Numbered from the stretch's first letter, positions 1-64,000 are shown. The stretch is DNA of 64,000 bases from Deinococcales bacterium (GCA_031414595.1 JANNVX010000041.1:32001-96000); one strand, 5' to 3'. Notes: generated from the letters alone by a model not told the origin. Made by a program: numbers and translations.

Positions 1-636
1 GCGCCGCCGTAAGGTCTTAGCGACTTGTTCAAGGGCAGTCCCAAGGTTGGTGTGGGTCGTGGCAGTTTGATTCTCGAGCTTGGTTAATTCATCCACAATA
101 CGCAGCGCCTGTTGCCGTCCACTTCCGGCTGGAATCAGTTTAATGCCTGTAGCACTGACTGCTAACGCCCCAACTTTATCACCGTGTCGGGTGCAAATTC
201 GGGCTGCCAAAGCCGCAAACTCGAGCGCCAATTGATACTTGGTTAAACGCCGTGTGCCAAAGTGCATACTTGGGTTGGCATCAACAATAATCCAAGCGGT
301 AATTTCGCGTTCTTCACGGTACTGACGCACATGCAGTTCGCCAGAACGGGCGGTCACATTCCAATCTATGCGCCGTACCTCATCGCCCGGTTGGTAGGGT
401 CGAACTTCGGCTAAATCTAAGCTGGGTCCGTAAAAGACCCCTGTGTACTCACCGAACAAAAAACCATCCAAGCGTTTAAGAACTGTAAACTCCAGCTTTC
501 GCAGCAATTGTTCTGGTAAGGCTATTGGCTTTACGACACTCGAGACGGCTGGCAAAGCAACAGGAAGCGCTTTTGGTTTCGGGGCGCGTCGCCAAAATGG
601 AACTCGAGCGGGGTTTGAAGATTGAACAAGTGTCAC
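1..636 (-). CDS. DUF58 family protein (MoxR/VWA-associated), 3' end runs off the window
   Basis: Manual translation from GTG at 636: ...LLRKLEFTVLKRLDGFLFGEYTGVFYGPSLDLAEVRPYQPGDEVRRIDWNVTAR...YREERE; directly downstream of moxR. Confidence 0.85.
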   Translation of the reverse strand, partial: MTLVQSSNPARVPFWRRAPKPKALPVALPAVSSVVKPIALPEQLLRKLEFTVLKRLDGFLFGEYTGVFYGPSLDLAEVRPYQPGDEVRRIDWNVTARSGELHVRQYREEREITAWIIVDANPSMHFGTRRLTKYQLALEFAALAARICTRHGDKVGALAVSATGIKLIPAGSGRQQALRIVDELTKLENQTATTHTNLGTALEQVAKTLRRR

Positions 637-657
637 GGTTAATCCTTAGCTTGGGCT

Positions 658-683
658 GGGCGAACACAGAGGTTCGCCCCTAC
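658..683. repeat. REP-like palindrome (GTAG family)
   Basis: GGGCGAAC-acagag-GTTCGCCC-CTAC; near-identical copies at 19025-19050 and 63329-63354. Confidence 0.75.
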
Positions 684-731
684 GGTGTATTGGTGGTGTA
701 TTATTCTTTGGTTGCTCGGTAAAAAACAGGA

Positions 732-1793
732 TTACAAATTAACTTCGATGTTGTTCATTGGGCTGGGGTTAGGAACGGCATCCACCGATTTGTACGGGTC
801 GCCAAGATGAACCCTTGGGAGGGAAATGTTCTGCACAATTTGGCTGATAATGCCCTCCATGCTAATGCCATCTGCCAGCGCATCGTAACTAGGGATAATA
901 CGGTGGCGCAGCACATCAAAGGCTAAGTCGCGGACATCTTCGGGTAGGGCGTATTCGCGTCCACGCATAATCGCAAGGGCTTTAGCACCTAGAATTAAAT
1001 TGATGCTGGCTCGAGGACTTGCACCTATCGAAATAAATTTTTTCAGTTCGGGTAGTTTGGCTTCCGATGGTTCACGGGTGGCTCGAGCCAGACGCACGGC
1101 GTACTCGGTGACACTCGGGTGAACGTACACTTGGTCTGCCATGCCTTGCAGCTTGACCAGTTCGTCTAGGGTCAGTTTAACATCTAACTTATCGAACTTG
1201 GCACTGACACGATCTACAATTGTCATTTCTTCGTGGAAACCAGGATAAGAAATCACGACCTTGAACATAAACCTATCCACTTGGGCTTCAGGCAAAAAGT
1301 ATGTGCCTTCGGACTCGATAGGGTTTTGGGTAGCAAGAACTAAAAACGGGTTAGGCAGTGGAAAAGTCTGTTGCCCAATCGTCACTTGGCGCTCCTGCAT
1401 TGCCTCGAGCAGCGCACTTTGAATTTTAGCTGGAGCGCGGTTAATTTCGTCGGCTAGAATCAGATTTGCCACAATCGGACCAAGTTCGGTTTCAAACTTG
1501 GCTTCTTTTTGATTATAAATTCGCGTGCCAATTAAATCGGCTGGAACAAGGTCTGGGGTAAATTGAATCCGCTTAAAACTTGCGCCAATCGCGTCGGCGG
1601 TGCTTTTAATCGCTAAAGTTTTTGCCAGACCCGGAACACCTTCAATTAAAATATGTCCGCGAGCAATCAAAGCCACCAGTAAGCGCTCGAGCATCACATC
1701 TTGCCCAACGATGACACGTTTGACTTCAAATAAAAGGGTGCGAATTTTAGCGCTGGCATCCATGACATCTTTGGGATTAAGGGGGGTGTTCAT
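732..1793 (-). CDS. moxR: MoxR family AAA+ ATPase
   Basis: Walker A GVPGLAKT, RIQFTPDL, DEINRA, ATQNPIE, LPEAQVDRF. Confidence 0.93.
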   Translation of the reverse strand: MNTPLNPKDVMDASAKIRTLLFEVKRVIVGQDVMLERLLVALIARGHILIEGVPGLAKTLAIKSTADAIGASFKRIQFTPDLVPADLIGTRIYNQKEAKFETELGPIVANLILADEINRAPAKIQSALLEAMQERQVTIGQQTFPLPNPFLVLATQNPIESEGTYFLPEAQVDRFMFKVVISYPGFHEEMTIVDRVSAKFDKLDVKLTLDELVKLQGMADQVYVHPSVTEYAVRLARATREPSEAKLPELKKFISIGASPRASINLILGAKALAIMRGREYALPEDVRDLAFDVLRHRIIPSYDALADGISMEGIISQIVQNISLPRVHLGDPYKSVDAVPNPSPMNNIEVNL

Positions 1794-1869
1794 TATGCTC
1801 CAGTTTGCGGTATGGGAATGAAGGACGTGTGAATAAAGGCAAAGGACAAAAGGTTGAAAACTGTTTTGG

Positions 1870-2334
1870 CTAACTTCTGGGGTTTGTTGGGGTGTTTGGA
1901 CTCGAGGGTGTGCTTGGTGTACTTGGACTCGAGGGTGTACCGGGATTCAAGGGAATCAGTTCTTGCGCTCCGCCGGGTTGACTGGGTTGATTGCCTTGTC
2001 CTTGACCGGGTTGTTGACCGGGGCGCGGAAAGGTAAAGAGTTGACCATCTTGGTAGATTTGCACAGGGCAATCTGCCGGGGCTTGTCCTTGACCGGGTTG
2101 AGGTTGTTGCCCTTGACCAGGTTGCTGACCGTTTGGACCTAATGGAATCAGTTCTCGAGGGTCGTTAGGGGCTGGCTGTTGGGTTTGCGGGGCAGCATTT
2201 TGCACCATCACCAAGGCAGAAGAACTTCGGGCTGCTCGAGCTTCAAGGGCTGTATTTGGAAGACTGACCCGACCCAGAAAAAAGCCAGCACCAAGCAGTG
2301 CAAAAGCGGCTGCCAATAAACCAAGTGATTTCAT
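1870..2334 (-). CDS. Membrane-anchored or secreted Gln/Pro-rich hypothetical protein
   Basis: N-terminal hydrophobic helix, QQPGQG repeats, ELIPL motif twice; TACAAT 6 nt before ATG. Confidence 0.7.
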   Translation of the reverse strand: MKSLGLLAAAFALLGAGFFLGRVSLPNTALEARAARSSSALVMVQNAAPQTQQPAPNDPRELIPLGPNGQQPGQGQQPQPGQGQAPADCPVQIYQDGQLFTFPRPGQQPGQGQGNQPSQPGGAQELIPLNPGTPSSPSTPSTPSSPNTPTNPRS

Positions 2335-2424
2335 GGGTGTATTGTAGCGCTTTTAGTGTGAAGCAATTGAATAGAAAATGACAATAAAATTCACATAAAC
2401 TTCAAAAACGCTATGCTGTGGCGG

Positions 2425-2658
2425 ATGAATCTACATCTCCAAAATGCCTTATTCGATTTGGCTGTCAACCGTGCGGCTCGAGTTACAGCGCTTTTGGGCA
2501 TGGGGCATTTGCAAGTTTGGCATCAAAAAACCAGATTTGCAATTCGGATTCCGATAGAATCCATTCGGGCTGCCCTCGAGAGTCGCCCAAGTGGAATCTA
2601 TCATTGGCGTGGTGGTGAACGAGGGATGTGGCATGAGGGAAAAGCAGTTACTCCATAA
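2425..2658 (+). CDS. Small hypothetical protein (77 aa)
   Basis: ORF 2413..2658; TATGCT box 7 nt before ATG 2425 suggests a leaderless start; fills the gap between flanking genes. Confidence 0.55.
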   Translation: MNLHLQNALFDLAVNRAARVTALLGMGHLQVWHQKTRFAIRIPIESIRAALESRPSGIYHWRGGERGMWHEGKAVTP

Positions 2659-3664
2659 GTTTGATATTTTGCCCTGTGCTACTCGAATCATAACAAGCAA
2701 GCGCAACCCGCAGTCCTTCATACCCATCTTGCCAAGTAATCGGTACGGGTGTGTCTGAACGCACCGCATCCAAAAATGCGCCTAGCATCTTGGCGGTGGC
2801 ATCTGACCCCCAGCCGAGCCAATTGGCAATTCTTGGAGCGCGACTCGAGTAGAGGCTTAATTTACCCGCAAAGGCATCTATTTCAAAAGCCCCATCTTCA
2901 AGAATAACCTCGAGTTTTAGGTGTCCCCAACGTGGATAAATTCCAACAGGGCGACTCCATGAACAATCTATACTGGCTGGTACTCGAGTTTCGCCCGTTC
3001 CTAAAATCAGCGTGGCAAAGCCGGCACTGTCAATCTCGAGGTCTGGAAAAAATGGGTTGCTGACTTCGGCTTGGACGCGACTAACTTCGGTCTCCAGTAG
3101 CCACCTGTACAAGTCGGTCAGGTGAACCGTGTGATCCATCACCGCGCCGCCGCCAGCCAAGGTTTTATTGGCAAACCAAGCGCGGCGGTGCATTGGATTT
3201 TCGGCGTGGTTGATGCCAATAATTGCTAGGACTCGTCCTAAGTCTTTTTGGGCTAAACGCGCTTTTAAGGAAATCAGGCTCGAGTCAAAGCGCATTGGGT
3301 AGGCAGTCATAAATTGTACCCCTGCGGCTTGACAAACCTCCTGCATTTGCAGCGCATCTTCTAAAGTCGTGGCAATCGGTTTTTCGCACAGAATATGCGC
3401 CCCACCTCGAGCCGCCAATCTGGTCAACGGCAAGTGCAACGATGTTTCCGAGCAGATAATTACCGCCTCTGGGCGTTCTGCCATCAGGGCTGCGTGGGTC
3501 GCAAAGTGTTTGAGTTTTGTACTACTCGAGAATGCCTCGGCTCGAGTTACGAGGCTTTCAGAGAAACCTAGAATCTCGATATTTGGAGTACGTTGTAAAA
3601 TATCGGCAAAGCCATCGGCGTGGACATGGGCGGTACTTAAAATTCCAATACGAAGGGTTTTCAT
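2648..3664 (-). CDS. Gfo/Idh/MocA family oxidoreductase
   Basis: HILCEKPIA, GGGAVMDHTVH motifs. Confidence 0.9.
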   Translation of the reverse strand: MKTLRIGILSTAHVHADGFADILQRTPNIEILGFSESLVTRAEAFSSSTKLKHFATHAALMAERPEAVIICSETSLHLPLTRLAARGGAHILCEKPIATTLEDALQMQEVCQAAGVQFMTAYPMRFDSSLISLKARLAQKDLGRVLAIIGINHAENPMHRRAWFANKTLAGGGAVMDHTVHLTDLYRWLLETEVSRVQAEVSNPFFPDLEIDSAGFATLILGTGETRVPASIDCSWSRPVGIYPRWGHLKLEVILEDGAFEIDAFAGKLSLYSSRAPRIANWLGWGSDATAKMLGAFLDAVRSDTPVPITWQDGYEGLRVALACYDSSSTGQNIKLME

Positions 3665-4656
3665 AAGTTCACCACTAAATTGCTGCCCAAGGATTCACGT
3701 ACTGCCAAACCGACTTTTAGGGCAGTCAGGGCATCTTCGGGCGTGACTAAAAATGGTGAATTGGTCTCGAGGGCATGTTTGACATGGGCAATTTGCAAAT
3801 GGTACGGGTCTGCTCCACCACTTAAAACAGGCAGCCCAACGGAGGCAATGCTCTGTGCTACTGGCGGCAAAAAACTCTGGACACTGTTTGCATCATCTGA
3901 GCGCCATTCGATTACACCATCTGTGCCAGCCACATCAAAACCAGTCCGAAAGACACCTTTGGGGTACGCCCATGCCCCCTCGAGATGGGCGATTGCACCA
4001 CTGGCAAAACGTAGTGTCGCAAGAACAACATCGCCTTTGGCATCGGGATGGAGGCTGCGAGAGCTACGCGCAAAAACCCGTGTCACCAGACCAGCGCCTG
4101 CCAGACCAGCAAACCAATTTGCCACATCAAAATCATGCACCATTAAATCCAGTGGCACACCGCCTGAACGGGTTTCGTCCAAAAACCAATTATCACCTTC
4201 TTTGGCAGGTTGATAGCCAGCCCGTTTTAAGCGCATTGTACCAAGCGCCCCAATTTCGCCTCGAGCGATACTAGCAGCCGCCGTTTGGTATTGTTCAAAA
4301 AAACGCACCACATGGGCAATAAAAAGGCGCACACCTGCTTTTTGACAGGTCTCAAGCATGGTGGTTGCATCTTCTAAAGTCAGTGCCATTGGTTTTTCGC
4401 ACACCACATGCTTACCAGCCTTAGCAGCCAAAAGCGTAAACTCGAGATGCTGCGGGGTCGGTAAACAAATATCCACCACATCTGCCAATTCAAGCAGTTC
4501 TGGGAGGCTGCAAACCTTGGCGTTGTGTTCTCGAGCCAGCCGCTCGGTTTGGGCAGTGTTTTGGTCATAGAGTGCCACGACCTCCGCCCCAGCCGCTCGC
4601 CAAGCCGCCAAATGCACCTGCCCCATTAAGCCCAAACCAATTATTCCTATTCGCAT
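3661..4656 (-). CDS. Gfo/Idh/MocA family oxidoreductase
   Basis: GIIGLGLMG, HVVCEKPMA, GGVPLDLMVHDFD; ATGA overlap with the next gene. Confidence 0.9.
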   Translation of the reverse strand: MRIGIIGLGLMGQVHLAAWRAAGAEVVALYDQNTAQTERLAREHNAKVCSLPELLELADVVDICLPTPQHLEFTLLAAKAGKHVVCEKPMALTLEDATTMLETCQKAGVRLFIAHVVRFFEQYQTAAASIARGEIGALGTMRLKRAGYQPAKEGDNWFLDETRSGGVPLDLMVHDFDVANWFAGLAGAGLVTRVFARSSRSLHPDAKGDVVLATLRFASGAIAHLEGAWAYPKGVFRTGFDVAGTDGVIEWRSDDANSVQSFLPPVAQSIASVGLPVLSGGADPYHLQIAHVKHALETNSPFLVTPEDALTALKVGLAVRESLGSNLVVNL

Positions 4657-12167: not shown

Positions 12168-13946
12168 CTACTCAGCCTCTTCTACTTTTTTGGTCTTCAC
12201 AAAGCGCTTGAGTACGCCACTTAAGCCACTCGAGACTCGAGCTAATAACGTGGGTTTTGCTGGCTCAGTAATTATTGCTGGCTCGATAAGAGTTTCCTCG
12301 AGTGGCTTACCAGTCAATCGGGCATAGGTGCGGCGGTCTGCCATAACCACCAGTTCATCGAGTGGCTCGAGGGTGGTGCTGCCGCGTGGGACACGAACAT
12401 GTCCGTCACGCAAAATAGCCACCAGTAGCGTATCTTGCCAGTCAAGGTCGCGCACCAATTGGTTACGCCATGTTTCTGGTACAGGCAGTCGGTAAAGACG
12501 TTCGTCGTCGGTATCCGAAATCATCAGTGCGTCTTGCTCGAGTAAATCAAGTAGGTCTGGGGTATCGCGTAAGCCAGTGGCACGTTTTAAGTATTCGTTA
12601 ATATGCACTGGACTATTTGAACGAGATTCGGCTTGGGCTGGCAGGATGCTTTCGCGTCCAGTCAGGGCATACCCCGCTAAAGTGGTCATTAAGAGCGGCA
12701 CAAGCAAGCCGTAGCCGCTCCATTCGGTAATTAGCAGCGTGGCGGCGAGTGGTGCATTGACTGCCCCAGCCAAAAAAGCCGCCATGCCTGCCAAAGTAAA
12801 GGCGGCTGGTTCGATGGGGTAGTTTGGAAAAATAATGTTCAGGGTTTGGGCAAATAAATTTCCGATTAACCCGCCCAGCACCAAGCTCGGGGTGATTAAA
12901 CCGCCAGTCACACCACTCGAGCCTGCCAGCAGTACAATTCCAGCCCGAATGATTAGCAATGCCAGTACCGTGCCAATCGGTAGAAAATCGGATAAGGAAA
13001 GCTGCATCCAACCCAATCCGTCACCCAAAGCAAATTCGGTGAAGACTGCTAGGACACCAATTAAAATGGCGGCTAGGGCAGTTCTTACCCAAATCGGGAT
13101 TTTAATTAAATTCCAACCTTCGCGCAGTCCACGTAAGGCAATTACAAAACCAGCCGCCGCCAGTGCCTCGAGTAAGCCCAAGACAAAAAAGGCTGGCAAT
13201 AAAGCGGGGGGCTGCCCTCCGAGTTGTGGCAGTTCAAAAAGGGGTTCAAAACCTCGGAATAAGCCGTAAATTGCAAAGGCAATCACACTCGAGAGGACGG
13301 CGGGCATCAGGGCTTCAATTTCAAATTCAAAACGTCGGTAGAGCATTTCGACCGCTAAAACCGCCGCCGCTAAAGGCGCACGTAAAGCCAAACCAAGCAT
13401 GGCAGCCAAGGTTGCCACAAACATCAAACGTCTGTCCTCGTCGGATAAGCGGGATAAGCGGGTAAAGACAGGCGCGAGAAGCATGGCGAGACTGGCAAAA
13501 ACCCCTTCGCGTCCTAACGGTGCGCCTACACTTGCAGTTAAGATACCTTGGAGTAATTCTAAAGCGGTACGACGCGGTTCTGGGTTGGCATTTTGACCAT
13601 GAAAGGCTTGAACCGCAGCGTTCACCCCGTCTGACTCGAGTGGAGGGGCATCTTTTTGTCTGGCACGCCAGAAAGCCAGCCCAGCAAATCCCAGTAAGGT
13701 CAGGAGTGGCAGTAACCAAGCACTTTGGGCGGTGTAGGCTTGTAAAATCCCGCCTTCACTGGGTAGTCCGGGTGGGCGTAAACCAGTTAAGCCAGATAAA
13801 AACCAGTCTTGTAAACGCTCGAGTACCCATGCCAGCGCTGCCCCGAACGCACCAACCAATAAGCCAGTGCCAATGCTGTACAAGACAACCCGACCAGTCT
13901 CGAGTCGAGCGCCAAAAAAGGGCAATGCGCGGCGTGTCGGTTGCAT
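12168..13946 (-). CDS. ClC family anion channel/antiporter with a C-terminal TrkA-C (RCK_C) domain
   Basis: GREG motif, APLAA repeats, many TM helices, LVAILRDG..VPRGST; TACGCT 7 nt before ATG 13946. Confidence 0.85.
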   Translation of the reverse strand: MQPTRRALPFFGARLETGRVVLYSIGTGLLVGAFGAALAWVLERLQDWFLSGLTGLRPPGLPSEGGILQAYTAQSAWLLPLLTLLGFAGLAFWRARQKDAPPLESDGVNAAVQAFHGQNANPEPRRTALELLQGILTASVGAPLGREGVFASLAMLLAPVFTRLSRLSDEDRRLMFVATLAAMLGLALRAPLAAAVLAVEMLYRRFEFEIEALMPAVLSSVIAFAIYGLFRGFEPLFELPQLGGQPPALLPAFFVLGLLEALAAAGFVIALRGLREGWNLIKIPIWVRTALAAILIGVLAVFTEFALGDGLGWMQLSLSDFLPIGTVLALLIIRAGIVLLAGSSGVTGGLITPSLVLGGLIGNLFAQTLNIIFPNYPIEPAAFTLAGMAAFLAGAVNAPLAATLLITEWSGYGLLVPLLMTTLAGYALTGRESILPAQAESRSNSPVHINEYLKRATGLRDTPDLLDLLEQDALMISDTDDERLYRLPVPETWRNQLVRDLDWQDTLLVAILRDGHVRVPRGSTTLEPLDELVVMADRRTYARLTGKPLEETLIEPAIITEPAKPTLLARVSSGLSGVLKRFVKTKKVEEAE

Positions 13947-18323: not shown

Positions 18324-19994
18324 TTATTGAGATGGTCGTTTACTCGAGAAAAAAGTCGTCAGCAATAACTGGGCTTCTTTCTCGAGTAAACCTGTTCGGA
18401 TACTAAATTGATGATTCCAATTAGCTCGAGACGCATCTAAGACACTGCCCAGCGCTCCAGATTTTGGGTTTCGGGCTGCAAATACAATTCGTGCTATTCG
18501 AGCTTCAAGGGCTGCACCAAGGCACATCAGGCAAGGCTCGAGGGTCACAACCAAGGTGCAATCAGTCAGGTATGGGGTTTTTAGGGCTTGGGTCGCTAAA
18601 CGTAAGACCTCGAGTTCGGCGTGTTGGGTCATGTCACCCAATTCTCGAGACCGATTATGTGCCTCGGTAATCACCACACCATTGTGCAAAATCACCGCAC
18701 CGACTGGCACTTCGCCTTGAGTTGCCGCGATTTGGGCTTGGGCTAATGCTTGGCGCATTGCCTCGAGTTCAGGGTTTTTGACTGGCGGCAAACTCACATC
18801 GAGTAACGGCGGCTCGAGACCTACAAAAACAATTTTTTGCTCAACCGCAAGCACTGGAATTTGGTCTCGGGATTCTCGAGGAATTTTACGGTCAATCAGG
18901 ACTTGCGACAGTTTTTTAGTCCCACCAGACAAGGTTATAAAATCACCGTTTTCTCGAGTTCGCAAAACCGCCTCTGGAAAAGCCTTTTGCGCCAACATAA
19001 ACGCGGATTCATTGCCCAAACCTCGTAAGGGCGAACCCCCGTGTTCGCCCTGCTTTTGCCTATCGCGTTTGTCTGGGTCAGGACAGACACGGGGGTCTGT
19101 CCCTACGGTTGATGGGTGGACATTGATATTGCCGTTTTGCACAAGACCTGTGTAATTATTTGGTAATGAAATTCTGGTGGTTTGCGGTAACTCGAGGGCA
19201 AGTCTGAGGTTTTCAATATGCTGGTAATCCGTTGGAATACTTCGTTGCTCGAGAATTTTACGAATAGCTCGGCGTTGAATAATGGTTTCTTCGAGTCGTA
19301 AATCAGTCCATTCTGGTAAACTTGAGGCTTGTTCTAAATAAGCATCTTCGTCTCGAGCATTTTGGGCATACCTTGCGAGGCGTTGAACAGCATTCGGAAA
19401 ACGCTCAATCAGGCGTGGCAGTATCTCGAGTCTGACCCAGTTGCGAGTAAATTTGGGGTCTTGGTTGCTCGGGTCTTCACGCCAAGTCAAGCCATGCTCG
19501 AGCAGGTATTTCTCGAGAACAGTTTTTGGAATCCCTAAAAGCGGACGATAAACCCGTGCGTTGCGTGGTGGTATGCCAGTGGCTCTGGCTGTGCCGCGCA
19601 AAAGCTGCATCAGAACTGTTTCGGCATTGTCCTCGAGTGTATGCGCTGTTAAAATTGTTTGGCATGAATTTTTCTTCGCTGTTCGGCTTAAAAATTCATA
19701 ACGCACATTTCGGGCAGCTTCCTCGAGCGACCAACTACGTTTTTCGGCGATGCTCGAGACTAAAATCGTTTCCGTAAAAAATTGAATGCCAAGGTTGGCG
19801 CAAATTCGACCCACAAAATCAGCATCCAAGCTCGAGTTTTCACGCAGGGCATGGTCAAGGTGAGCCACCACAATCTCGAGCTTGGCAGCATGAGCCAAAT
19901 GCAGCAGCGCCATAGAATCCCGCCCGCCAGAAACCGCCAGTAAAAACGGGGCTTTGCACGGCTCGAGTTGCGTTTGAAGGTGTGAAACCAGCAT
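18324..19994 (-). CDS. tilS: tRNA(Ile)-lysidine synthetase TilS fused to a TadA-like deaminase
   Basis: AVSGGRDSMAL, TAHTLEDNAET, RNWVR; C-terminal GEVPVGAV, HAE, TLEPCLMC; TGATG-coupled to the upstream gene. Confidence 0.92.
   Translation of the reverse strand: MLVSHLQTQLEPCKAPFLLAVSGGRDSMALLHLAHAAKLEIVVAHLDHALRENSSLDADFVGRICANLGIQFFTETILVSSIAEKRSWSLEEAARNVRYEFLSRTAKKNSCQTILTAHTLEDNAETVLMQLLRGTARATGIPPRNARVYRPLLGIPKTVLEKYLLEHGLTWREDPSNQDPKFTRNWVRLEILPRLIERFPNAVQRLARYAQNARDEDAYLEQASSLPEWTDLRLEETIIQRRAIRKILEQRSIPTDYQHIENLRLALELPQTTRISLPNNYTGLVQNGNINVHPSTVGTDPRVCPDPDKRDRQKQGEHGGSPLRGLGNESAFMLAQKAFPEAVLRTRENGDFITLSGGTKKLSQVLIDRKIPRESRDQIPVLAVEQKIVFVGLEPPLLDVSLPPVKNPELEAMRQALAQAQIAATQGEVPVGAVILHNGVVITEAHNRSRELGDMTQHAELEVLRLATQALKTPYLTDCTLVVTLEPCLMCLGAALEARIARIVFAARNPKSGALGSVLDASRANWNHQFSIRTGLLEKEAQLLLTTFFSSKRPSQ
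19025..19106. repeat. Inverted REP doublet inside the tilS coding sequence
   Basis: GTAAGGGCGAACCCCCGTGTTCGCCC ... GGACAGACACGGGGGTCTGTCCCTAC. Confidence 0.8.
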
Positions 19995-20674
19995 CAGACC
20001 CCCAGAAACCAATAAGGCAAATCTAAATACTGAACCGTAGGGGTTTGCCATGGCAAACCCTGCCCCGAAATTTCGATTTTGGTGTAAAACGGTTCAGCCA
20101 TAATTCCTGTGTTCGGATGCCATTCACGCCCAATACTCACAGCAATGATTAACCCCTGTGCATCTCCAATGGGTGTGAATGAACTCGAGCCTTCGCGGTA
20201 CTTGGGTATGGAAAGAGTTTTTTTTGTCCAATCTGCAAATTCGCTTGCATCTGGTACTGCCATGCCAATTTCTGAGATGCTGAGAATACCTCTCGAGGTG
20301 AATGGTACAGTTTCGTCGTGGTTGAGTTCGTGTCGGGCGATTAACTCGAGGATATTGCCAGCAGGGTCATAAAAATAAATCGCATGGGCGTTCCAATTTA
20401 GAAAATCAGCAATGAAGTCTGACCCGTCTAGTACAATCTCAACTCGAGCCTCGAGCCAAGTTGCTGCCGCTTCTATTTGTTGCTCGGGGATATTAAAAGC
20501 AAAGTGGTACTTAGCGTTTGAAGCTGGTTTCTCGAGAAAGACCAATTCACTCGAGCCAATCTGAATCTGTAAAACACCATTCTCGAGCATCACAGGTAAC
20601 TCCAGAATTTCACCATAAAAAACCTTGAGTGGTGCTAAATCGGTTGTCTCGAGGGTCAAGCGGTGGATGTTCAC
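19994..20674 (-). CDS. VOC/glyoxalase family protein
   Basis: FYGEIL, YHFAFNIP, IYFYDPAGNILELIAR. Confidence 0.85.
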   Translation of the reverse strand: MNIHRLTLETTDLAPLKVFYGEILELPVMLENGVLQIQIGSSELVFLEKPASNAKYHFAFNIPEQQIEAAATWLEARVEIVLDGSDFIADFLNWNAHAIYFYDPAGNILELIARHELNHDETVPFTSRGILSISEIGMAVPDASEFADWTKKTLSIPKYREGSSSFTPIGDAQGLIIAVSIGREWHPNTGIMAEPFYTKIEISGQGLPWQTPTVQYLDLPYWFLGV

Positions 20675-20705: not shown

Positions 20706-22364
20706 GTGAAAAGCGATACGATTAAACAAGGTCCGCAACAAGCCCCCGCTCGAGCCATGCTTCGTGCCATTGGTATTACCGATGCCGAATTTAAGATTCC
20801 GTGGGTCGGGATTATTAACACCTGGACAGAAGGAATGCCCTGTAATTTCCATTTGCGCGACCTTGCCCAAGACTTAAAAGAAGGTTGTAAAGAAGCGGGG
20901 ATTCATCCATTTGAATTTGGTGCGCCCGCCATTTCCGACGGCATCAGCATGGGAACACCGGGGATGCGAGCCAGTCTGGTCTCGAGGGAACTGATTGCCG
21001 ATTGCGTCGAAATCGTGGCTCAAGGCTATATGTATGATGCGATGGTGGCGCTTGTTGCCTGTGATAAAACCAATCCGGGTGGTGCAATGGGCTTAATTCG
21101 AGCCAATGTTCCGGGTTTGGTGCTGTACGGCGGAAGCATTGCGCCAGGTCGTTTGGGCGATAAGAACCTGACCGTGGTCAGTGTTTTTGAAGCCGTTGGA
21201 CAACATGCGGCGGGTAAAATCACCGATGCCGAACTTGATGCCGTTGAACGGGTCGCCATTCCGGGGGCTGGAGCATGTGGTGGTCAGTACACCGCCAACA
21301 CCATGAGCATGGCGCTCGAGGTGCTAGGTTTATCGCCAGTCGGCTACAACAGCATTCCAGCCACTGCGCCTGAGAAAAAAGAAGCCACCCGTAAAGCTGG
21401 TTATGTGCTGATGGACGCAATCAAGCACAACCGAAAGCCGCGTGATTTTTTGACCCGCCAAAGTTTCTTAAATGCAATTGCGGCAGTAGCAGCCACGGGC
21501 GGCAGCACCAACGCGGTACTGCACTTAATGGCAATTGCCAGAGAAACAGACATTCACCTCGAGTTACAAGATTTTGATACGGTCTCGAGGGCAACGCCAG
21601 TCATTGCCAACATGCGCCCGTGGGGGGTGTATACCGCTTGGGAACTCTGGGAGGCTGGTGGAATTCCACTGATTATCAAAAACCTGATAGACGGCGGTAT
21701 GATTGACGGTCATCAAATGACAGTCACAGGTAAGACTTTGGCACAAGAAGTTGAAGGTGTGACTGAAACGGCTGGGCAACAAGTCGTGGTGACAAGGGAA
21801 CATGCTTTTAAGCCAACTGGTGGTTTGTTGGTGCTGCATGGCAACCTTGCTCCAGATGGTGCAGTGCTAAAACTGGCTGGCACAGAACGCCACGAACACA
21901 CAGGCATCGCTCGGGTTTTTGATAACGAACAAAGCGCCATGAAAGCCGTGCTGCATAAACAGATTAACCACGGGGATGTGGTCGTGATTCGCTACGTTGG
22001 ACCAAAAGGCGCACCCGGAATGCCCGAGATGCTTTCAGTCACCAGTGCGATTGTCGGCGAAGGCATTGGCGAGCATGTGGCAATGGTCACAGATGGGCGT
22101 TTTAGTGGCGGCACAAAGGGTTTAATGATTGGGCATGTATCCCCAGAAGCCCAAGTTGGCGGGGCGATTGCGCTGGTGCGTGAAGGCGATATTATCCATA
22201 TCAATTGCGACACGGGTTTACTCGAGTTACGGGTGGATGAAGCAGAATTGGCGGCTCGAGCCAAAACTTGGGTTGCACCTGAACTCGAGTTTAAGACTGG
22301 GCTTTTTGCAAGGTACGCCAAGCAAGTTTCAAGTGCCAAGTACGGTGCAATTCTCGAGGATTAA
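20706..22364 (+). CDS. ilvD: Dihydroxy-acid dehydratase
   Basis: PCNFHL, ISDGISMG, CDKTNPG, CGGQYTANTM, GGSTNA, TDGRFSGGT. Confidence 0.95.
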   Translation: MKSDTIKQGPQQAPARAMLRAIGITDAEFKIPWVGIINTWTEGMPCNFHLRDLAQDLKEGCKEAGIHPFEFGAPAISDGISMGTPGMRASLVSRELIADCVEIVAQGYMYDAMVALVACDKTNPGGAMGLIRANVPGLVLYGGSIAPGRLGDKNLTVVSVFEAVGQHAAGKITDAELDAVERVAIPGAGACGGQYTANTMSMALEVLGLSPVGYNSIPATAPEKKEATRKAGYVLMDAIKHNRKPRDFLTRQSFLNAIAAVAATGGSTNAVLHLMAIARETDIHLELQDFDTVSRATPVIANMRPWGVYTAWELWEAGGIPLIIKNLIDGGMIDGHQMTVTGKTLAQEVEGVTETAGQQVVVTREHAFKPTGGLLVLHGNLAPDGAVLKLAGTERHEHTGIARVFDNEQSAMKAVLHKQINHGDVVVIRYVGPKGAPGMPEMLSVTSAIVGEGIGEHVAMVTDGRFSGGTKGLMIGHVSPEAQVGGAIALVREGDIIHINCDTGLLELRVDEAELAARAKTWVAPELEFKTGLFARYAKQVSSAKYGAILED

Positions 22365-22980: not shown

Positions 22981-25533
22981 TCATTGCCGATGCTGCCTAA
23001 CCCGATTCAAATTTAGCCTATCCTGACTGAGTTGAATAATCGTGTCGGTCTCGAGTGAATGGGCTACACCCAGCACAGCTTTGGCATAAGCAAATCCAGC
23101 TAAGTGCAATCCAGCCAGGACTTGACTTAGAACTTGCTCGAGCGGTTGGTTCTCGAGTGGTGTGCTTGTTTCGATCAGAACCGCAAATTCGCTGCTGCTG
23201 ACGCGGTAGGTGCGTCCTAATTCGGCAAATTGTTGCTCGAGATGTTGGGCAAATTGTTGTAAAAGTTGTGTGCCAGTGCCTTTACCTGAGCGTTCGTTGG
23301 TGATGATAATACCGTCAAGTTCGATAGAAATAACGTGTAAGGCATGGTCTTGACGCTGAGCGCGGCTGAGTTCATTCTCAAAATCGGCATCAAAGGCTTT
23401 GCGGTTATTCAGACCTGTTAGGGTGTCGGTATAGGCTTGGCGCTCGAGTTGAATGGCACGGTATTCGGCTTGTAATCGGGCTTGCTCGAGGTCGTTAATC
23501 TGTTGGCGCATTTGTTGTTCGTGCGGTTGGGTCGGCTCATCGGTTTCTTCTTCTTGGTTGGCAAGGACATAGAAACTCAAGTCATCTTGTTCGTTGGGCA
23601 ATTCTAGGGCATCTGGGTCGCTCAAGGCTCGAATAGCGGCTTGAATCACACTCGGGTCAAATTGAGTTCCACTACCGCGTTCAAGTTCACGCAAGGCTTC
23701 ATCGGCTCGCCATGCACGTTTGTATGGGCGTACTTGAGTCAGGGCATCGTAGACATCGGCAACTGCCACAATCCGCCCCTCGAGTGGAATCACTTCTCCG
23801 GGCAGGTTATACGGGTAGCCTTGTCCATTCCATTGCTCATGGTGTGAAATGGCAATCCGTTCTGCCATTCGCAGTAATTTTGAACGTCCACCCGACAGAA
23901 TTCTCGAGCCAATAACGGTGTGCTGTTTCATTTGATTAAATTCTTCAAGGCTGAGTTTGGCTGGTTTTAAGAGAATTTCATCTGGAATTCCTATTTTCCC
24001 AACATCGTGCAAACGGGCGGCAAGACGCAGTAAGCGCACTTGTGCATCTTTTTGCCCCAATTGTTTGGCAATCAGTGCCGAATAGTGTCCGACCCGAAAG
24101 GTATGTTGTCCTGTGCGGTCATCGCGGTATTCGGCAGCCACAGCCAAGCGCGTCACCACTTCGATTTGCGATTTCTCGAGTTCAAGGGTGCGTTGTCTGA
24201 CTTTGGTTTCGGCTTCAGTTCGGGCTTGTTGGGCGGTAACGGTGCGAAGTCGGTAGACTTCAGCTTCGTTGCGGGCGCGTTCTAAGTCAAACCGAGCCGA
24301 GATGATACGGGTTTGTTTATCGCGTTCCTCATTAAAAGTTCGGCTTCGCAGGGCATAAAAATGCCGATGGTGCATCAAGGCGGTTTTTTCCTTACCTGTT
24401 GCTTCATAGACCGAGGATAAAACCTCATGGGCTTGAAATTGCCCACGTACACTGCCGACCGCTTCAGCCACGTTTAGGGCAATGTGCAAATACTCAAGGG
24501 CTTCTTGATTCGAGTTTAATTCAAAATGGTCTCGTCCTAAGTGCAGCAATGCTTCGAGTTCTTGTTCACGATCCCTAATACTTCGGGCAATTTCAAGCAC
24601 AATCATATGCTGACTAATCGCTTCTTGGAATTGGCTCAGTTGCCTAAAAACCTGTCCTAAACCATCAAGGGCTGCCATTTGCCCTTGTTGAAACCCCGAT
24701 TCTTTGGCGTACATCAGGGCTTCTGAAAAACGTTCTTGAGCGCGGGCAAAGTCAGCCGATTTACGATCCAATTGCCCAAGATTTAAGATATTGACACAAA
24801 GAATAACCGGGTCGCCTAAACTCCGCGCCGCTTCTAATGCTCTTAAGTAATACTCTTGGGCGTTTTGTAAGTCCTCTAAATGTTCAAATGCCAAACCGAT
24901 ATTGACCAAATTGGTAATCTCGAGTTTGCTATCATCTATTGTTTTTAGCAGCGAATGCGCGTCAAATAAGTAGCGCAATGCCATTTCATACTCGCCTAAT
25001 TTAATATAGGTTAAACCCGTGTTGGTCAGGGTTTTGGTCAATTGCTTATTGTCACCAAGGGTTCTTTGTAGTTCTAAGGTTTGTTGCAGTGCCGTTAAAC
25101 TTTCGGTGTAATGCCCCAGTTGTAACTCAACGCTGGCAATCCCCGAACGGGCTTCGATTTCCAGTTTGATTTGATTGTCCTGTTTGGCATAGGCTAAAAC
25201 TTCAAGAAAATGCTTCTTAGCTTCTTCAAAACGCCCAAGCTGGCGTTCAAGTTGCGCCACTTGCAATAAAGATTGAAACGCCAAGTCAAATTCTTCTAAC
25301 CGGCTATACTGACGTGCCGAACGGTACAAAAATCCTCGCGCTAAACGCAGTTCGCCTTGTTGACGTTCTAACAAACCTAGCTTTTCGAGCATTACGGCTC
25401 GAGCCACTGGCTTATTTTTTGTTTCTATAAACCATGAACGCAGTGCAATTCGAGCTTGACTGCGTTCCAGTGGCTTTAATTCTGCTTCAAGCCAGACTTG
25501 TACTTCAAGTAGTGCAGATGGAAAGGAAGTCAT
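22981..25533 (-). CDS. TPR-repeat + HD-GYP phosphodiesterase + degenerate GGDEF protein
   Basis: Long TPR array; LHDVGKIG, HHEQWNGQGYP, DVYDALT..RPYK; TDTLTGLNNR with YRVSSSEF in place of RxGGDEF. Confidence 0.9.
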   Translation of the reverse strand: MTSFPSALLEVQVWLEAELKPLERSQARIALRSWFIETKNKPVARAVMLEKLGLLERQQGELRLARGFLYRSARQYSRLEEFDLAFQSLLQVAQLERQLGRFEEAKKHFLEVLAYAKQDNQIKLEIEARSGIASVELQLGHYTESLTALQQTLELQRTLGDNKQLTKTLTNTGLTYIKLGEYEMALRYLFDAHSLLKTIDDSKLEITNLVNIGLAFEHLEDLQNAQEYYLRALEAARSLGDPVILCVNILNLGQLDRKSADFARAQERFSEALMYAKESGFQQGQMAALDGLGQVFRQLSQFQEAISQHMIVLEIARSIRDREQELEALLHLGRDHFELNSNQEALEYLHIALNVAEAVGSVRGQFQAHEVLSSVYEATGKEKTALMHHRHFYALRSRTFNEERDKQTRIISARFDLERARNEAEVYRLRTVTAQQARTEAETKVRQRTLELEKSQIEVVTRLAVAAEYRDDRTGQHTFRVGHYSALIAKQLGQKDAQVRLLRLAARLHDVGKIGIPDEILLKPAKLSLEEFNQMKQHTVIGSRILSGGRSKLLRMAERIAISHHEQWNGQGYPYNLPGEVIPLEGRIVAVADVYDALTQVRPYKRAWRADEALRELERGSGTQFDPSVIQAAIRALSDPDALELPNEQDDLSFYVLANQEEETDEPTQPHEQQMRQQINDLEQARLQAEYRAIQLERQAYTDTLTGLNNRKAFDADFENELSRAQRQDHALHVISIELDGIIITNERSGKGTGTQLLQQFAQHLEQQFAELGRTYRVSSSEFAVLIETSTPLENQPLEQVLSQVLAGLHLAGFAYAKAVLGVAHSLETDTIIQLSQDRLNLNRVRQHRQ

Positions 25534-30104: not shown

Positions 30105-30312
30105 GGCACAGTCTACTCGAGACTGAGGTTTAGTTACACATCGGTGCGCGAAAAAGCCTTACCCAGTACAAAATTACTCGAGAATCCCATGACTGCGCCA
30201 GTTAAGTACAGAATTAAGCTATTTTTTGCTGCTGCCACAGTGTCTATGATGAATTTCATGGTAAAAAACAATTTTGGGTTTAGACTGGACTTGCTTAACC
30301 CAAGGAGGTTTT

Positions 30313-31257
30313 ATGAAATTGTTTCATTGGCTCATCATTGGCGCATTGGCGCTTGTACTCGCATCTTGTGGTGGAACGCCCATCCCAGCCAAACCAAATG
30401 TGGCGGCAAAACCGGTTAGCAGCAACTTGAATGGCACAACTGCAACCGCCAAAAGAAACGGAATTCGTGGCAATGCCAAAGGTATTACTACTTTGATGGG
30501 TTTTGGACGCTTATTCAAAGCAGGTGCGCCGCTGACTCAAATGCTCAGTCAGGTCTTACCTCAATTGACCCAAACCCAAGTCATGGCAGCAACCAAAAGT
30601 ATCGGACTTGCCAAAGGTAACATGCAATTGCAAGCCGCATCAGGTTGCCTCAGTGGGACAATTAGCTCACCAATCAGCCGTTCGACCGATGCCGACGGTG
30701 ATGGTATCCCGGTTGAAGTCTTGGTGCTATTCTCTAATTGTGTCCTTGATTTAGGTGCTACACCAAATCCTGTTCTCAACGGCGCGATTTACATTAAAGA
30801 CGGCAATGATGCCAGCGCCACCAGCAGCTATACCGTGATTATAGACCTAACCATCAGCAACGGAGCAGACTCAATCAAACTTGGTCTGGGCGTAGATTAC
30901 ACTGCCCCTGCCACAATTGGTGGCGCACACGGATTCAACTTTGTAATTCAACTCAAATCAACCACGGCTGGGGTTGTTTCTGAGGTTGGCGTAGCCTTTA
31001 ATTCGACTTTTCAACCAACAACTGGAACAGACCCATTTGGTAACGGCACACTGAATTTTACTGGCACATATGCGGAAACCGCAGGCGCAGATTCTTACAG
31101 CTTTAATTTAACAGGTACAAACCTTGGAGTCGCTACAAGCTGTGATGACTTCAACGCTGGTACACTGCGGGTCGCCGATGCTGATAGTTTCTTCCAAGTC
31201 AATTACACCAGTTGCGGACATGGCACATACACAGGTGACACAACAGGCACATTCTAA
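30313..31257 (+). CDS. Hypothetical beta-rich lipoprotein
   Basis: AGGAGG SD, lipobox LASC, DADGDG motif, Thr/Gly-rich. Confidence 0.75.
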   Translation: MKLFHWLIIGALALVLASCGGTPIPAKPNVAAKPVSSNLNGTTATAKRNGIRGNAKGITTLMGFGRLFKAGAPLTQMLSQVLPQLTQTQVMAATKSIGLAKGNMQLQAASGCLSGTISSPISRSTDADGDGIPVEVLVLFSNCVLDLGATPNPVLNGAIYIKDGNDASATSSYTVIIDLTISNGADSIKLGLGVDYTAPATIGGAHGFNFVIQLKSTTAGVVSEVGVAFNSTFQPTTGTDPFGNGTLNFTGTYAETAGADSYSFNLTGTNLGVATSCDDFNAGTLRVADADSFFQVNYTSCGHGTYTGDTTGTF

Positions 31258-31263
31258 ACAACC

Positions 31264-31304
31264 AAAGAACCTCGAGCCATTAAGCTCGAGGTTCTTTTAT
31301 TTTT
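31264..31304 (+). terminator. Intrinsic terminator, 14-bp stem built on CTCGAG
   Basis: AAAGAACCTCGAGC-cattaa-GCTCGAGGTTCTTT then T-rich. Confidence 0.8.
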
Positions 31305-60255: not shown

Positions 60256-60310
60256 GCTATGGGCTATGAGCTTTGAGGCAATTCGTTTTTCACAGGATTC
60301 TCGAGGGATT

Positions 60311-61640: not shown

Positions 61641-62101
61641 GCCACCATTGGTTTACTGGTTTTACCGCTTAAGCTCCTGAACCTCGAGACGGCATTGACA
61701 TCTTCGGCTAACTCGAGCATATCAAGGTAAATATCATCAGCATAATACGCCAGCGCCGTTAGTCCTTCGGCAAAGACTTCGTAACGCAGTGCCGAAACTG
61801 GTAGTTCTACAGTTAAAGTCACATCTTCGTCTTCATCGAGGACAAACTTGGCAAGGTTCATTTCCCGGTTAAAATGCAGCATCGCTTCCATCGTATGCAC
61901 CCGAGTTTTCTCGAGTTCAGGGGCTGGCACAAATGGCGAGATGGTCATGTACAACCACGCCTCGGTCAAGCGCATGTAAATGGTAAAAAAACCATTTTCG
62001 CCCTTAAAACCTGTGCGCCAGACACCATCACCAATGGTTTCAAAGCTCCAGCCGTATTCGCCAAAGAATTTTTCTACTGTTTGAGGTTTGACTTCCGTCA
62101 C
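61637..62101 (-). CDS. YbjN domain protein
   Basis: Acidic protein with N...LAKF.LD pattern; TAGAAT 7 nt before GTG 62101. Confidence 0.65.
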
Positions 62102-62154
62102 GCCTTGTATTCTAACCTTGTTGCCCAATAAGTCATGCGCCAAATGTCCAAGGT

Positions 62155-63228
62155 TTAACCAAGTACATTCGCCAAGCGTTTCATGCCTTGGTCTATTTCG
62201 TCAAAAGTCAGCGCACAAAATGGCAAACGCAAGAAGTTATTGCCGTCAGTTGGATTGACAAAAAAACCCCGTCCGTCGGTTAGTGCTAAGCCCGCACCTG
62301 CGGCTCTGGCAAGAACATCGCTGATACTCGAGCCGCTTGGTAAACGAATGGATAAGAAAAAACCACCTTCGGGTTCGTAGAAGTCGGTCAGACCATTAGC
62401 CCTAAGTGCCGTTGCCATGCGTTCTAAACGCGGGGCGTATAAGGCGCGTAAACGCTCGAGTTGCGGTTCTAAATGACCTTGCCGTAAGAATTCAAAAACC
62501 GTGGCTTGCCCCAAGAACGCCCCAGAAATATAGGTATCGTTGGCAGCTTTGGCAAGTTTTGCCAGCCATAGTTTATCGCCAACCAGTGTTCCAACCCGTA
62601 CTCCGGGCGAAATTTGTTTGGTGTACGAACTCATCTGCATGACTCGAGTCGGATTCAACTCAAATAAACTGGGGATATTGATGCCTTTGTAGCGCAAGGG
62701 GCGGTACGGCGCATCCTCGAGAATCATAAAGTCATGGGCTTGGGCTAGTTCTAACACTGCTTGGCGTTTTTCTAGGCTCATGGTTGCCCCACTTGGGTTT
62801 TGAAAATCGGCAATTAAGTACACCAGACTTGGTTTGTGGGTTTCCACGGCTTTTTTGAAGGCTTCGAGATTCACGCCGTCATTCTCGAGTGGGACTAAGA
62901 CAATGTTGACCCCGTGGCGTTTTAAGAGCGTGATGGTACGGTCATAGGTTGGCGATTCAACCAGTACGGTTGCACCAGTGGGCAGAATCAAACCCAGCAA
63001 ATCCACAAACGATAAACTGCCGTTGCCAATCAGCACTTGGTCGGGGCTGACTCCGTTCTGAACGGCTAAAAGTTCACGAAGCGGCGTAAAACCATAGCCA
63101 GTCCCATAACGCATTGCCTCGAGTGCCAGTTTCGGGTCTTGCATCACGGCGGCAGCACATTCGCGTACCAACTCGAGCGGATAGGATTCATCGGCGGGAA
63201 CACCACGGGTCAGTTGAATCGTTTGCAT
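62155..63228 (-). CDS. PLP-dependent aminotransferase (LysN/MocR-type catalytic domain)
   Basis: ESPTY, DFQNPSG, EDAPY, SYTKQISPGVRVG, PEGGFF. Confidence 0.88.
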   Translation of the reverse strand: MQTIQLTRGVPADESYPLELVRECAAAVMQDPKLALEAMRYGTGYGFTPLRELLAVQNGVSPDQVLIGNGSLSFVDLLGLILPTGATVLVESPTYDRTITLLKRHGVNIVLVPLENDGVNLEAFKKAVETHKPSLVYLIADFQNPSGATMSLEKRQAVLELAQAHDFMILEDAPYRPLRYKGINIPSLFELNPTRVMQMSSYTKQISPGVRVGTLVGDKLWLAKLAKAANDTYISGAFLGQATVFEFLRQGHLEPQLERLRALYAPRLERMATALRANGLTDFYEPEGGFFLSIRLPSGSSISDVLARAAGAGLALTDGRGFFVNPTDGNNFLRLPFCALTFDEIDQGMKRLANVLG

Positions 63229-63328
63229 ACAATTGGGATGCTAACATTTACCTCTGAGAATCGTTCACTAGAGCCCCCGAAAAGTCCAGATTCTTAGGCA
63301 GACCAGTGCATCACAAACCAGAAAATCA

Positions 63329-63443
63329 GGGCGAACACGGGGGTTCGCCCCTACAAAATACATTGTTATGCCCTTTTTGTAGGGACAGGCGACCATGCCC
63401 GTCAGGTGCGCGTTTATGGTCAAGACACCCCTGTGTCTGTCCT
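63329..63443. repeat. REP cluster (one intact copy and one interrupted copy)
   Basis: GGGCGAACACGGGGGTTCGCCCCTAC ... GTAGGGACAG[insert]GACACCCCTGTGTCTGTCCT. Confidence 0.75.
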
Positions 63444-63536
63444 ATAACTAACGATGAAATGGCATTCTTTCGGAGGCTCTATCAGCCTGTGTTCGGCTGA
63501 CATAGACAGCCTGTGTCCTTAAGGTAAGCTAAGACT

Positions 63537-64000
63537 ATGGAATATCGTTTATTGGGTCGTACAGATTTTAACATTTCAACCATCAGTTTTGGCGCGTGGG
63601 CAATTGGTGGAACTTGGGGTGAAGTGCGTGACGAGGATAGCCTTGGGGCGCTCCACAAAGCCCTTGATTTGGGTGTCAATTTTATTGACACCGCCGATGT
63701 CTACGGCGATGGGCGCTCGGAGCGTTTAATTGCCAAGTTGCGTTCAGAACGCTCTGAGCCTTTTTTTGTTGCCACCAAAGCAGGGCGCAGACTGCCTAAG
63801 CAAACAGTAGACGGCTACAGCAAAGAAAACCTACATGCTTGGGTCAAAGACAGCTTGGATAACCTTAAAACTGAGACGATAGACTTATTACAACTGCACT
63901 GCCCACCAACTGATTTATACCACTCAGACACGGTTTTTGGCATTCTCGAGCAGATGAAAAAAGATGGCATGATTCGTCATTACGGGATTTCAGTGGAAAC
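63537..64000 (+). CDS. Aldo/keto reductase, runs off the window
   Basis: Manual translation MEYRLLGRT..ISTISFGAWAIGG...GVNFIDTADVYGDGRSE...VATKAG...IDLLQLHCP. Confidence 0.9.
   Translation, partial: MEYRLLGRTDFNISTISFGAWAIGGTWGEVRDEDSLGALHKALDLGVNFIDTADVYGDGRSERLIAKLRSERSEPFFVATKAGRRLPKQTVDGYSKENLHAWVKDSLDNLKTETIDLLQLHCPPTDLYHSDTVFGILEQMKKDGMIRHYGISVE

Follow-up and report, generated by a model that had tools for sequence, protein, structure and literature searches.

Genome-wide over-representation of the palindrome CTCGAG in a family of Deinococcales bacteria

A 64,000-nucleotide stretch of the genome of a Deinococcales bacterium (GCA_031414595.1, JANNVX010000041.1:32001-96000), hereafter the window, contains the palindromic hexamer CTCGAG 346 times, or 5.4 times per kb. 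The count in 100 dinucleotide-preserving shuffles of the window was 7.37 ± 2.87 with a maximum of 16, and 0 of the 100 reached 346, which corresponds to an enrichment of approximately 47-fold. There is a weak yet pervasive bias towards the complete word; it acts at the level of the DNA, is blind to reading frame and extends through the whole family to which the genome belongs. The interpretation preferred here, which is plausible while falling short of probable, is that CTCGAG is a highly iterated palindrome (HIP) of the type represented by HIP1 in cyanobacteria, and that the bias which keeps it near 5 copies per kb would come from a reader protein plus a drive linked to DNA uptake or recombination.

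Abundance of CTCGAG

The window corresponds to positions 32001-96000 of contig C41 in an assembly of 4.49 Mb, 120 contigs and 47.2 % G+C (G000, the source genome). CTCGAG occurs 23,235 times in this genome (5.18 per kb, about once per 190 bases) and is its most frequent hexamer, three-fold ahead, with the next six hexamers being overlaps of CTCGAG itself. The genome-wide count is 24 times the expectation from base composition and 67-79 times that from Markov models of order 1 to 3 trained on the motif-masked genome. A maximal-order Markov model gave an observed to expected ratio (O/E) of 1.16, and this measure was rejected because the 5-mers on which it is conditioned stem mostly from CTCGAG itself; the models of the masked genome were therefore used instead. 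Within CTCGAG fall 69 % of all TCGA tetramers of the genome. The word is carried by all 90 contigs longer than 10 kb at 5.18 ± 0.79 per kb (range 2.55-8.6), and copies per 5-kb segment average 25.9 with variance 40.4. An earlier note on this DNA had described CTCGAG as about 20-fold enriched; the enrichment stands, and the figure was too low by comparison with shuffles (47-fold), base composition (24-fold) and Markov models (67- to 79-fold), the last being the genome-wide correction that the note had proposed. Its counts for the first 4.6 kb and for tilS (Table 1) were exact, and confinement of the excess to one contig, which it had named as a refuting outcome, is contradicted by the presence of the word in every contig above 10 kb and throughout the family.

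CTCGAG is a bare 6-bp word without a flanking signal. The flanking positions hold at most 0.026 bit each, with a slight shortage of C before and of G after the word, and the conservation beyond a core that marks repetitive extragenic palindromic (REP) elements and miniature inverted-repeat transposable elements (MITEs) is absent, since the flanks carry no information. Distances between successive copies are close to exponential (mean 191, coefficient of variation 0.99), and the departures consist of a depletion of short distances, a small excess at 50-200 bp, and 11 gaps longer than 2 kb against 0.6 expected. Genes for tRNA contain 7 copies, with 27.5 expected at the genome density.

Reading frames, codon usage and protein composition

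In the 51 open reading frames (ORFs) of at least 150 amino acids in the window, CTCGAG lies in frames 0, 1 and 2 in 183, 57 and 55 cases respectively, and the DNA outside these ORFs has 5.6 copies per kb (51 in 9,117 bases). The 3,244 ORFs of this size in the source genome contain 19,163 copies (11,423, 3,712 and 4,028 by frame), and the density is 5.14 per kb inside them and 5.35 per kb in the DNA outside ORFs of at least 150 amino acids, which still includes short genes. The frame counts and the density outside ORFs bear out the earlier observation that the word occupies all frames as well as intergenic DNA. Shuffling synonymous codons within genes, which retains the proteins and a codon usage already inflated by CTCGAG, left 1,849 copies (1,228, 375 and 247 by frame), so that the observed number is in ten-fold excess and frames 1 and 2 are enriched 10-fold and 16-fold. 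Shuffling codon order left 848 copies, a 23-fold excess. The enrichment thus persists after correction for codon and dipeptide usage, where the earlier note had allowed that it might vanish.

The leucine codon preceding GAG is CTC in 85.5 % of cases compared with 7.9 % elsewhere, and the glutamate codon following CTC is GAG in 92.7 % compared with 20 % elsewhere. Leu-Glu is the most over-represented dipeptide (O/E 2.23, 18,995 copies) and Glu-Leu has an O/E of 0.98. The ratio falls below 1 for Val-Glu (0.72) and Met-Glu (0.53) and reaches 1.5 for Ser-Ser. The bias towards CTCGAG overrides codon choice and has about doubled the frequency of Leu-Glu in the proteins of this organism.

Maintenance of sites

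The source genome was compared with a sister genome (G001) over 77 kb of aligned sequence at 88.6 % identity. Of 448 sites in the source genome 383 are intact in the sister, and 383 of the 452 sister sites are intact in the source genome, which is about 85 % compared with 57 % for any hexamer; unshared sites number 65 in one genome and 69 in the other, so that gain and loss are in balance. Synonymous third positions were then compared inside and outside CTCGAG, as in the codon test of Xu et al. 2018. The third position of CTC differs in 5.0 % of cases inside the word and 27.1 % outside, that of GAG in 7.0 % and 31.8 %, that of CGA in 5.3 % and 23.9 %, and that of TCG in 4.5 % and 17.3 %, while non-ORF DNA differs in 6.1 % inside and 13.0 % outside. 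Synonymous positions, whose comparison was among the checks proposed in the earlier note, thus change much less inside the word (4.5-7.0 %) than outside (17-32 %), and the loss of CTCGAG is slowed 4-5 times relative to identical codons at other places. A codon alignment of ilvD from 12 genomes contains several CTCGAG copies of relatives at places where other genomes, including the source genome, have a different amino acid.

Words one mismatch away from CTCGAG are less well kept. Transition neighbours are conserved in 36 % of cases and face a full CTCGAG in the other genome in 20.6 %, and transversion neighbours are conserved in 43 % and face the full word in 6.2 %. Genome-wide, transition neighbours are 1.5-2.3 times as frequent as expected, transversion neighbours at positions 2-3 are depleted (0.6-0.9 times), and one-mismatch deviations are most frequent at the outer positions (5,263 compared with 3,181 and 3,548). 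Under a one-parameter model in which only complete CTCGAG is favoured, the scaled bias is 2.3-2.8 from the reduction in rate and 3.2-4.9 from equilibrium codon-pair ratios, or about 3 overall. The force per site is weak, comparable to selection on codon usage or to biased gene conversion, but it is exerted over more than 23,000 sites.

Short-range interference

Interference between neighbouring copies was measured on pairs of Leu-Glu dipeptides k codons apart, which holds the protein sequence fixed; the expected fraction in which both are encoded by CTCGAG is 0.36. Both were CTCGAG in 0 of 122 pairs at k=2 (an arrangement that would create GAGCTC), 14 of 267 at k=3 (0.15 times expectation), 25 of 269 at k=4 (0.26 times) and 51 of 280 at k=5 (0.51 times), and the ratio rose to 0.7-0.8 at k=6-8 and 0.94-0.99 at k=25-30. 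Pairs 8-20 bp apart are depleted in all frame combinations. A second copy within 8-20 bp is seldom kept; the advantage is accordingly that of a locus some 20 bp long and not of each copy, which fits either the footprint of a protein or redundancy. Avoidance of hairpins was rejected as the cause, as the folding energies of word-spacer-word arrangements do not track the depletion profile.

Doublets with the copies 7 bp apart, CTCGAGNCTCGAG, number 101 in the source genome, which is the random expectation, while other short spacings are depleted; there are 17 doublets at 8 bp and 20 at 9 bp, and the 7-bp form is about five times commoner than those at 8-10 bp. The base at N in these doublets is unbiased and the sequences around them are unrelated; ORFs contain 73 of the 101.

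Distribution across Deinococcales

The close relatives of the window are metagenome-assembled genomes (MAGs) of Deinococcota and Deinococcales. All 19 sampled genomes of the family, from five genera, contain 4.3-6.8 CTCGAG per kb (computed with rounded genome sizes) at a local G+C content of 44-62 %; 18 of them are drafts, 57-94 % complete, and one, G013, is closed. The reversed word GAGCTC is nearly missing. A phylum-wide sample of 151 genomes contained no further member of the family. Densities in this sample were 0.01-0.3 per kb in the 77 genomes of g7, 0.6-1.6 per kb in the 27 genomes of g9, where the word is no denser than its reversed form, 1.4-3.4 per kb in the 20 genomes of g13, g22 and g23, and 1.5-2.4 per kb in the three genomes of g6 and g21.

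The codon shuffle was repeated on three genomes of these groups that are closed or nearly so, with 120-140 kb taken from each. CTCGAG exceeded the shuffle 2.4-fold in G042 (g13, 63 % GC), with 17 copies in frame 1 against 3.0 and 23 in frame 2 against 7.1, and 1.6 per kb outside ORFs against 0.34 expected. The excess was 2.6-fold in G059 (g21), with 31 against 1.3 in frame 1 and 37 against 8.6 in frame 2, and 1.7-fold in G019 (g6). The reversed word GAGCTC, of which the source genome has 6 copies, showed no such excess in any of the three. Other families thus show, in closed genomes, a weaker excess that correction for codons does not remove; the trait is graded across Deinococcales, and it is extreme in the family of the source genome. 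The comparison across Deinococcota that the earlier note had called for thus places CTCGAG in the whole family, and a weaker form of the trait in the order.

CTCGAG is scarcer in recently acquired islands of the source genome and depends on residence time. The poorest stretches, with 1.3-2.6 copies per kb, are a polysaccharide cluster of low GC on C46, a locus for an RHS toxin on C14 and an island with copper/redox genes on C79. Loci of these kinds are typically exchanged, so copies of the word accumulate with time of residence. Most methyltransferase genes, which are mobile themselves, have an ordinary density. No phage of this bacterial family was found among the viral contigs listed (three clustered sites; mostly high-GC phages), and three lower-GC viral records that were searched have ordinary densities of the word.

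DNA methyltransferases and restriction

The source genome has about 26 DNA methyltransferase genes, comprising five for C5 enzymes, about eight for N4/N6 enzymes (PF01555), about ten of the gamma class and one of the D12 class. Among the gamma-class enzymes, four are HsdM-like, several belong to type IIG, and two, encoded on C4 and C89, have a specificity domain resembling that of TaqI. No match to PF00145, PF01555, PF02384, PF07669 or PF02086 lies in the window, the nearest being upstream of it (Table 1), and the earlier statement that the window has no methyltransferase holds for these five Pfam families. A search of the 19 family genomes, 18 of them drafts, limited to PF00145, PF01555, PF02384/PF07669 and PF02086, found no methyltransferase orthologue shared by the family. 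Among these genomes, PF00145 (C5) is absent from G010 and present in one copy each in G006 and G013, and PF01555 is absent from the closed G013 and from G002.

Individual candidates for a CTCGAG methylase were rejected on their distribution. The C4 enzyme (TaqI_C domain) occurs in only two, G001 and G003, of the 12 other f1 genomes of the order-level sample, and the C89 enzyme in 3 of the 18 other family genomes. The C89 enzyme has CamA and M.BseCI as relatives in the PDB and is 49 % identical to a Planktothrix protein labelled 'Modification methylase BstVI' at its source, BstVI being presumably a CTCGAG enzyme; a plasmid search with the C89 enzyme returned no informative names. D12 enzymes are present in 18 of the 19 family genomes, and they fall into unrelated groups at different loci; the widest group (seven genomes, three genera) was rejected as a shared methylase, being absent from the source genome and lying at differing loci. 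The order-level distribution of D12 enzymes relative to CTCGAG is suggestive and imperfect. Very-short-patch repair was likewise rejected, as no Vsr was found in the source genome and neighbours of the deamination type are enriched and not depleted. The methyltransferase lead of the earlier note is thereby not supported, since none of the approximately 26 enzymes, those with TaqI-like domains included, has orthologues across the family, and the same holds for a HIP1-style link between CTCGAG and a methylase. A search with PF04555 for an XhoI-family nuclease gave no match, and its positive control matched no genome either.

At one methylase locus the C5 gene of the source genome (C90) is replaced in the sister genome (C245) by a gene for a D12 adenine methylase of the widest group, with flanks that are 96 % and 90 % identical, and this arrangement is an allelic swap of modification genes.

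The source genome is scarred by restriction, much like those of cyanobacteria. GGCC occurs in 152 copies (0.01 times expectation), GATC is reduced to 0.14 times and CCGG to 0.28 times, and several palindromes are nearly absent (GAGCTC 6, TGCGCA 2, CGATCG 3, GGCGCC 3 and GACGTC 3 copies). Avoidance is also strong for TTCGAA (29 copies), ATCGAT (89) and GTCGAC (26), and the counts of dozens of 6-bp palindromes stay below 50.

Features of the window and of other loci

The locations of the features mentioned are given in Table 1. In one ORF of the window tilS, which encodes lysidine synthetase, is joined to a gene resembling tadA for tRNA adenosine deaminase. The 850-amino-acid protein with a GGDEF domain has close copies only in Deinococcales MAGs, and its central part is about 40 % identical in Lachnospiraceae MAGs. 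The locus on C14, among the poorest in CTCGAG, looks from its domain content like a polymorphic-toxin locus. The tRNA array on C56 covers most amino acids and holds 5 of the 7 CTCGAG copies borne by tRNA genes; 68 tRNA genes were predicted in the assembly by ARAGORN. A primer-pattern search for 16S found no rRNA gene in the assembly.

Table 1 Locations of features in the window (numbered from its first base) and on other contigs (contig prefixed)
Feature	Location	Strand	Remarks
Whole window	1-64000		346 CTCGAG: 295 in ORFs of at least 150 amino acids, 51 outside
First 4.6 kb	1-4600		27 CTCGAG
Doublets CTCGAGNCTCGAG, copies 7 bp apart	12229-12241, 20443-20455, 37540-37552		Three in window
tilS-tadA fusion ORF	18324-20051	-	575 amino acids; TilS N and C domains, TadA; 22 CTCGAG, 12.7 per kb, among the densest genes of the window
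ilvD	20706-22364	+	12 CTCGAG; at the same place 12 of 12 in G001, 11 in G006, 10 in G007, 4-6 in other genera
850-amino-acid protein	22981-25533	-	TPR repeats, HD-type phosphodiesterase-like part, GGDEF domain
Longest CTCGAG-free stretch of the window	30177-31276		1,094 bp; spans site-less 327-amino-acid ORF 30274-31257
Methyltransferase match nearest to the window	C41:6070-9579		Upstream of the window
ComEC	C41:159371-160177		
C5 methylase locus	C90:33087-35055		D12 adenine methylase at this place in G001, C245 (L239:1546-3518)
RHS locus	C14:27187-38127 (L278:1187-12127)		3,646-amino-acid ORF with RHS repeats and pretoxin-HINT domain, then SUKH-family gene and small ORFs
tRNA array	C56:144-4674 (L282)		27 tRNA genes on one strand in 4.6 kb

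Possible mechanisms

In the preferred interpretation a dimeric protein would read CTCGAG in duplex DNA, and DNA bearing the word would be favoured on uptake or during recombination between cells or between chromosome copies. The result would be a molecular drive, as is known for uptake sequences and is now proposed for HIP1. This interpretation is favoured because it needs no marking of strands, tolerates the lack of a shared methylase, predicts that close copies are redundant, and matches the direction of recent work on HIP1; ComEC and two secretins are also present in the source genome, though they do not discriminate. Several points weigh against it. No candidate for the reader protein was found in these genomes, the competence families occur also in control genomes without CTCGAG, and structural selection or biased repair would leave the same pattern of conservation. 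The absences of methylases in the family are soft, as 18 of the 19 genomes are drafts and an unrecognised or fast-diverging methylase may be present. The word differs from known uptake sequences in being a 6-bp palindrome at 5 copies per kb with no signal in its flanks, and the exception at 7 bp is a poor match to a simple footprint. The reported effect of HIP1 on transformation depends on methylation, and no family-wide methylase was found for CTCGAG.

A more specific form of the drive, offered tentatively, is that CTCGAG arose as an independent counterpart of HIP1 that works without a methylase, in which a dimeric protein of polyploid, transformable bacteria favours CTCGAG-rich DNA and the drive rewrites codons and proteins. 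The strength of the bias on this basis is about 4 in the family of the source genome, about 1 in the closed genomes of two other families, and nil in g9 and g7. If this were true, the reader gene could be traced along the gradient by phyletic correlation, an approach already applied to HIP1 (PMC13756078), and examined in cultured relatives, and a second comparable system would become available for a 30-year-old question about HIP.

Two other explanations, both unlikely and neither favoured over the other, have been advanced for HIP1. The HIP model of Elhai is a ratchet of methylation-directed mismatch repair, in which an orphan methyltransferase specific for CTCGAG or TCGA would mark full sites and repair of mismatches within or beside near-sites would be biased to the methylated strand, full sites piling up as a by-product. 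CTCGAG is a classic type II target and a palindromic hexamer suits a dimeric or symmetric enzyme; the source genome has methyltransferases in number, two with TaqI-like specificity domains, D12 enzymes are nearly ubiquitous in the family, and one-mismatch deviations lie mostly at outer positions, as Elhai saw for HIP1 (PMC4390886). The ratchet is nevertheless made less likely by the lack of a methyltransferase common to the family, with D12 groups that are unrelated and no Vsr, and deamination-type neighbours are enriched and not depleted. It also predicts that density saturates near 1 site per kb and that sites interfere across about 1 kb (PMC4390886), compared with 5 per kb and about 20 bp here. 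Selection for a chromosomal function, argued for HIP1 in PMC5861425, would instead have the sites bind an abundant nucleoid-associated or organising protein with a tiny gain from each. Sites are conserved beyond their codons whatever the frame, and also in non-coding DNA, an outcome that the same test gave for HIP1 and that Xu et al. read as selection (PMC5861425); interference over 8-20 bp fits the footprint of a protein, and the word is evenly spread in the genome. The scaled effect of only about 3 would, however, require each of 23,000 sites to be visible to selection, words with one mismatch are less conserved than control hexamers, opposite to the variants of HIP1, and no candidate protein was found.

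It is rather improbable that CTCGAG serves as a self-marker for a nuclease, in a Chi-like role or in defence, with CTCGAG-rich DNA spared or productively processed and other DNA degraded. The extreme restriction pressure (GGCC at 0.01 times and GATC at 0.14 times expectation, dozens of 6-bp palindromes below 50 copies), the lower density in acquired islands and the Chi-like role suggested for HIP1 would agree with such a marker, but a palindrome cannot be oriented, as Chi words are, and no candidate nuclease was found. The possibility that the word merely follows from base composition, from the way codons or dipeptides are used, from avoidance of the other palindromes of the form NTCGAN, or from a dispersed repeat element can be considered refuted. 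CTC GAG does encode the common pair Leu-Glu, and TTCGAA, ATCGAT and GTCGAC are avoided; against this stand the 10-fold excess over the synonymous and 23-fold excess over the codon-order shuffle, the 10- and 16-fold excesses in frames 1 and 2, the equal density outside ORFs, the absence of conservation in the flanks and the slowed loss inside the word. The preferred interpretation, a drive linked to uptake or recombination, is retained with the reservations given above.

Significance

The role of HIP1 has been open since the 1990s and has been studied in a single phylum. CTCGAG provides a second and denser system, with another word in another phylum, by which the traits general to such words can be separated from cyanobacterial peculiarities. 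Its strength is measurable at a scaled bias of about 3, its interference is of short range, and a shared methyltransferase is apparently lacking. Within these genomes it is a sharp marker of native as opposed to acquired DNA. It also skews the statistics of codons and dipeptides, with consequences for binning, for gene calling and for inference based on codons. Enzymes of the XhoI type are frequent cutters of CTCGAG-rich genomes. A route to experiments is offered by organisms outside the family whose closed genomes show the trait in weaker form and which are probably in culture.

Comparison with known systems

No report of CTCGAG as an iterated palindrome was found in the full-text literature, a search whose scope excludes most subscription journals. 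The DNA uptake sequence (DUS) of Neisseria and the uptake signal sequence (USS) of Pasteurellaceae are asymmetric words of 9-12 nucleotides present at about 1 per kb, and the receptor for DUS is known. Like CTCGAG they are short, dense in the genes and spacers of naturally transformable lineages and poorer in foreign islands, and their spread is ascribed to a weak drive and not to a function of each site, to which CTCGAG is likened. Chi words are asymmetric and oriented with replication; CTCGAG is its own reverse complement and shows neither trait. Genomes with a restriction system avoid its site, whereas CTCGAG is the commonest hexamer of the source genome. Systems of the XhoI type share the word and have dimeric type II enzymes, and a CTCGAG restriction-modification pair of this type has been predicted in Mycolicibacterium smegmatis (PMC7526240).

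The closest parallel is HIP1, GCGATCGC, for which cyanobacteria have the alternate forms GGCGCC, GCsGC, rCCGGy and GGGATCCC (PMC4390886, PMC5861425). The earlier note had likened CTCGAG to HIP1, and the likeness is supported feature by feature. Both are short palindromes over-represented by tens-fold throughout the genome, in all frames and between genes, both have constituent codons that are more conserved inside the word than outside (by the test of PMC5861425), both are scarcer in acquired DNA, and the function of both is unexplained. HIP1 has been proposed as an uptake signal, and has been reported to raise transformation, with a Chi-like role suggested. Xu et al. 2018 describe for it a periodic distribution at 10-90 kb. 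CTCGAG differs in belonging to Deinococcota and not to cyanobacteria, in having 6 bp and not 8, and in lacking a GATC- or GC-rich core. Its density of about 5 per kb compares with 300-2,700 sites per Mb for HIP1 (PMC4390886). Methylases for GATC and CGATCG track the distribution of HIP1 (PMC4390886), whereas no co-distributed methyltransferase was found for CTCGAG. Variants of HIP1 with one mismatch are more conserved than controls (PMC5861425), and those of CTCGAG are less so (36-43 % compared with 57 %). For CTCGAG, interference at short range and an effect on the proteome, in which Leu-Glu is raised 2.2-fold, have been measured here.

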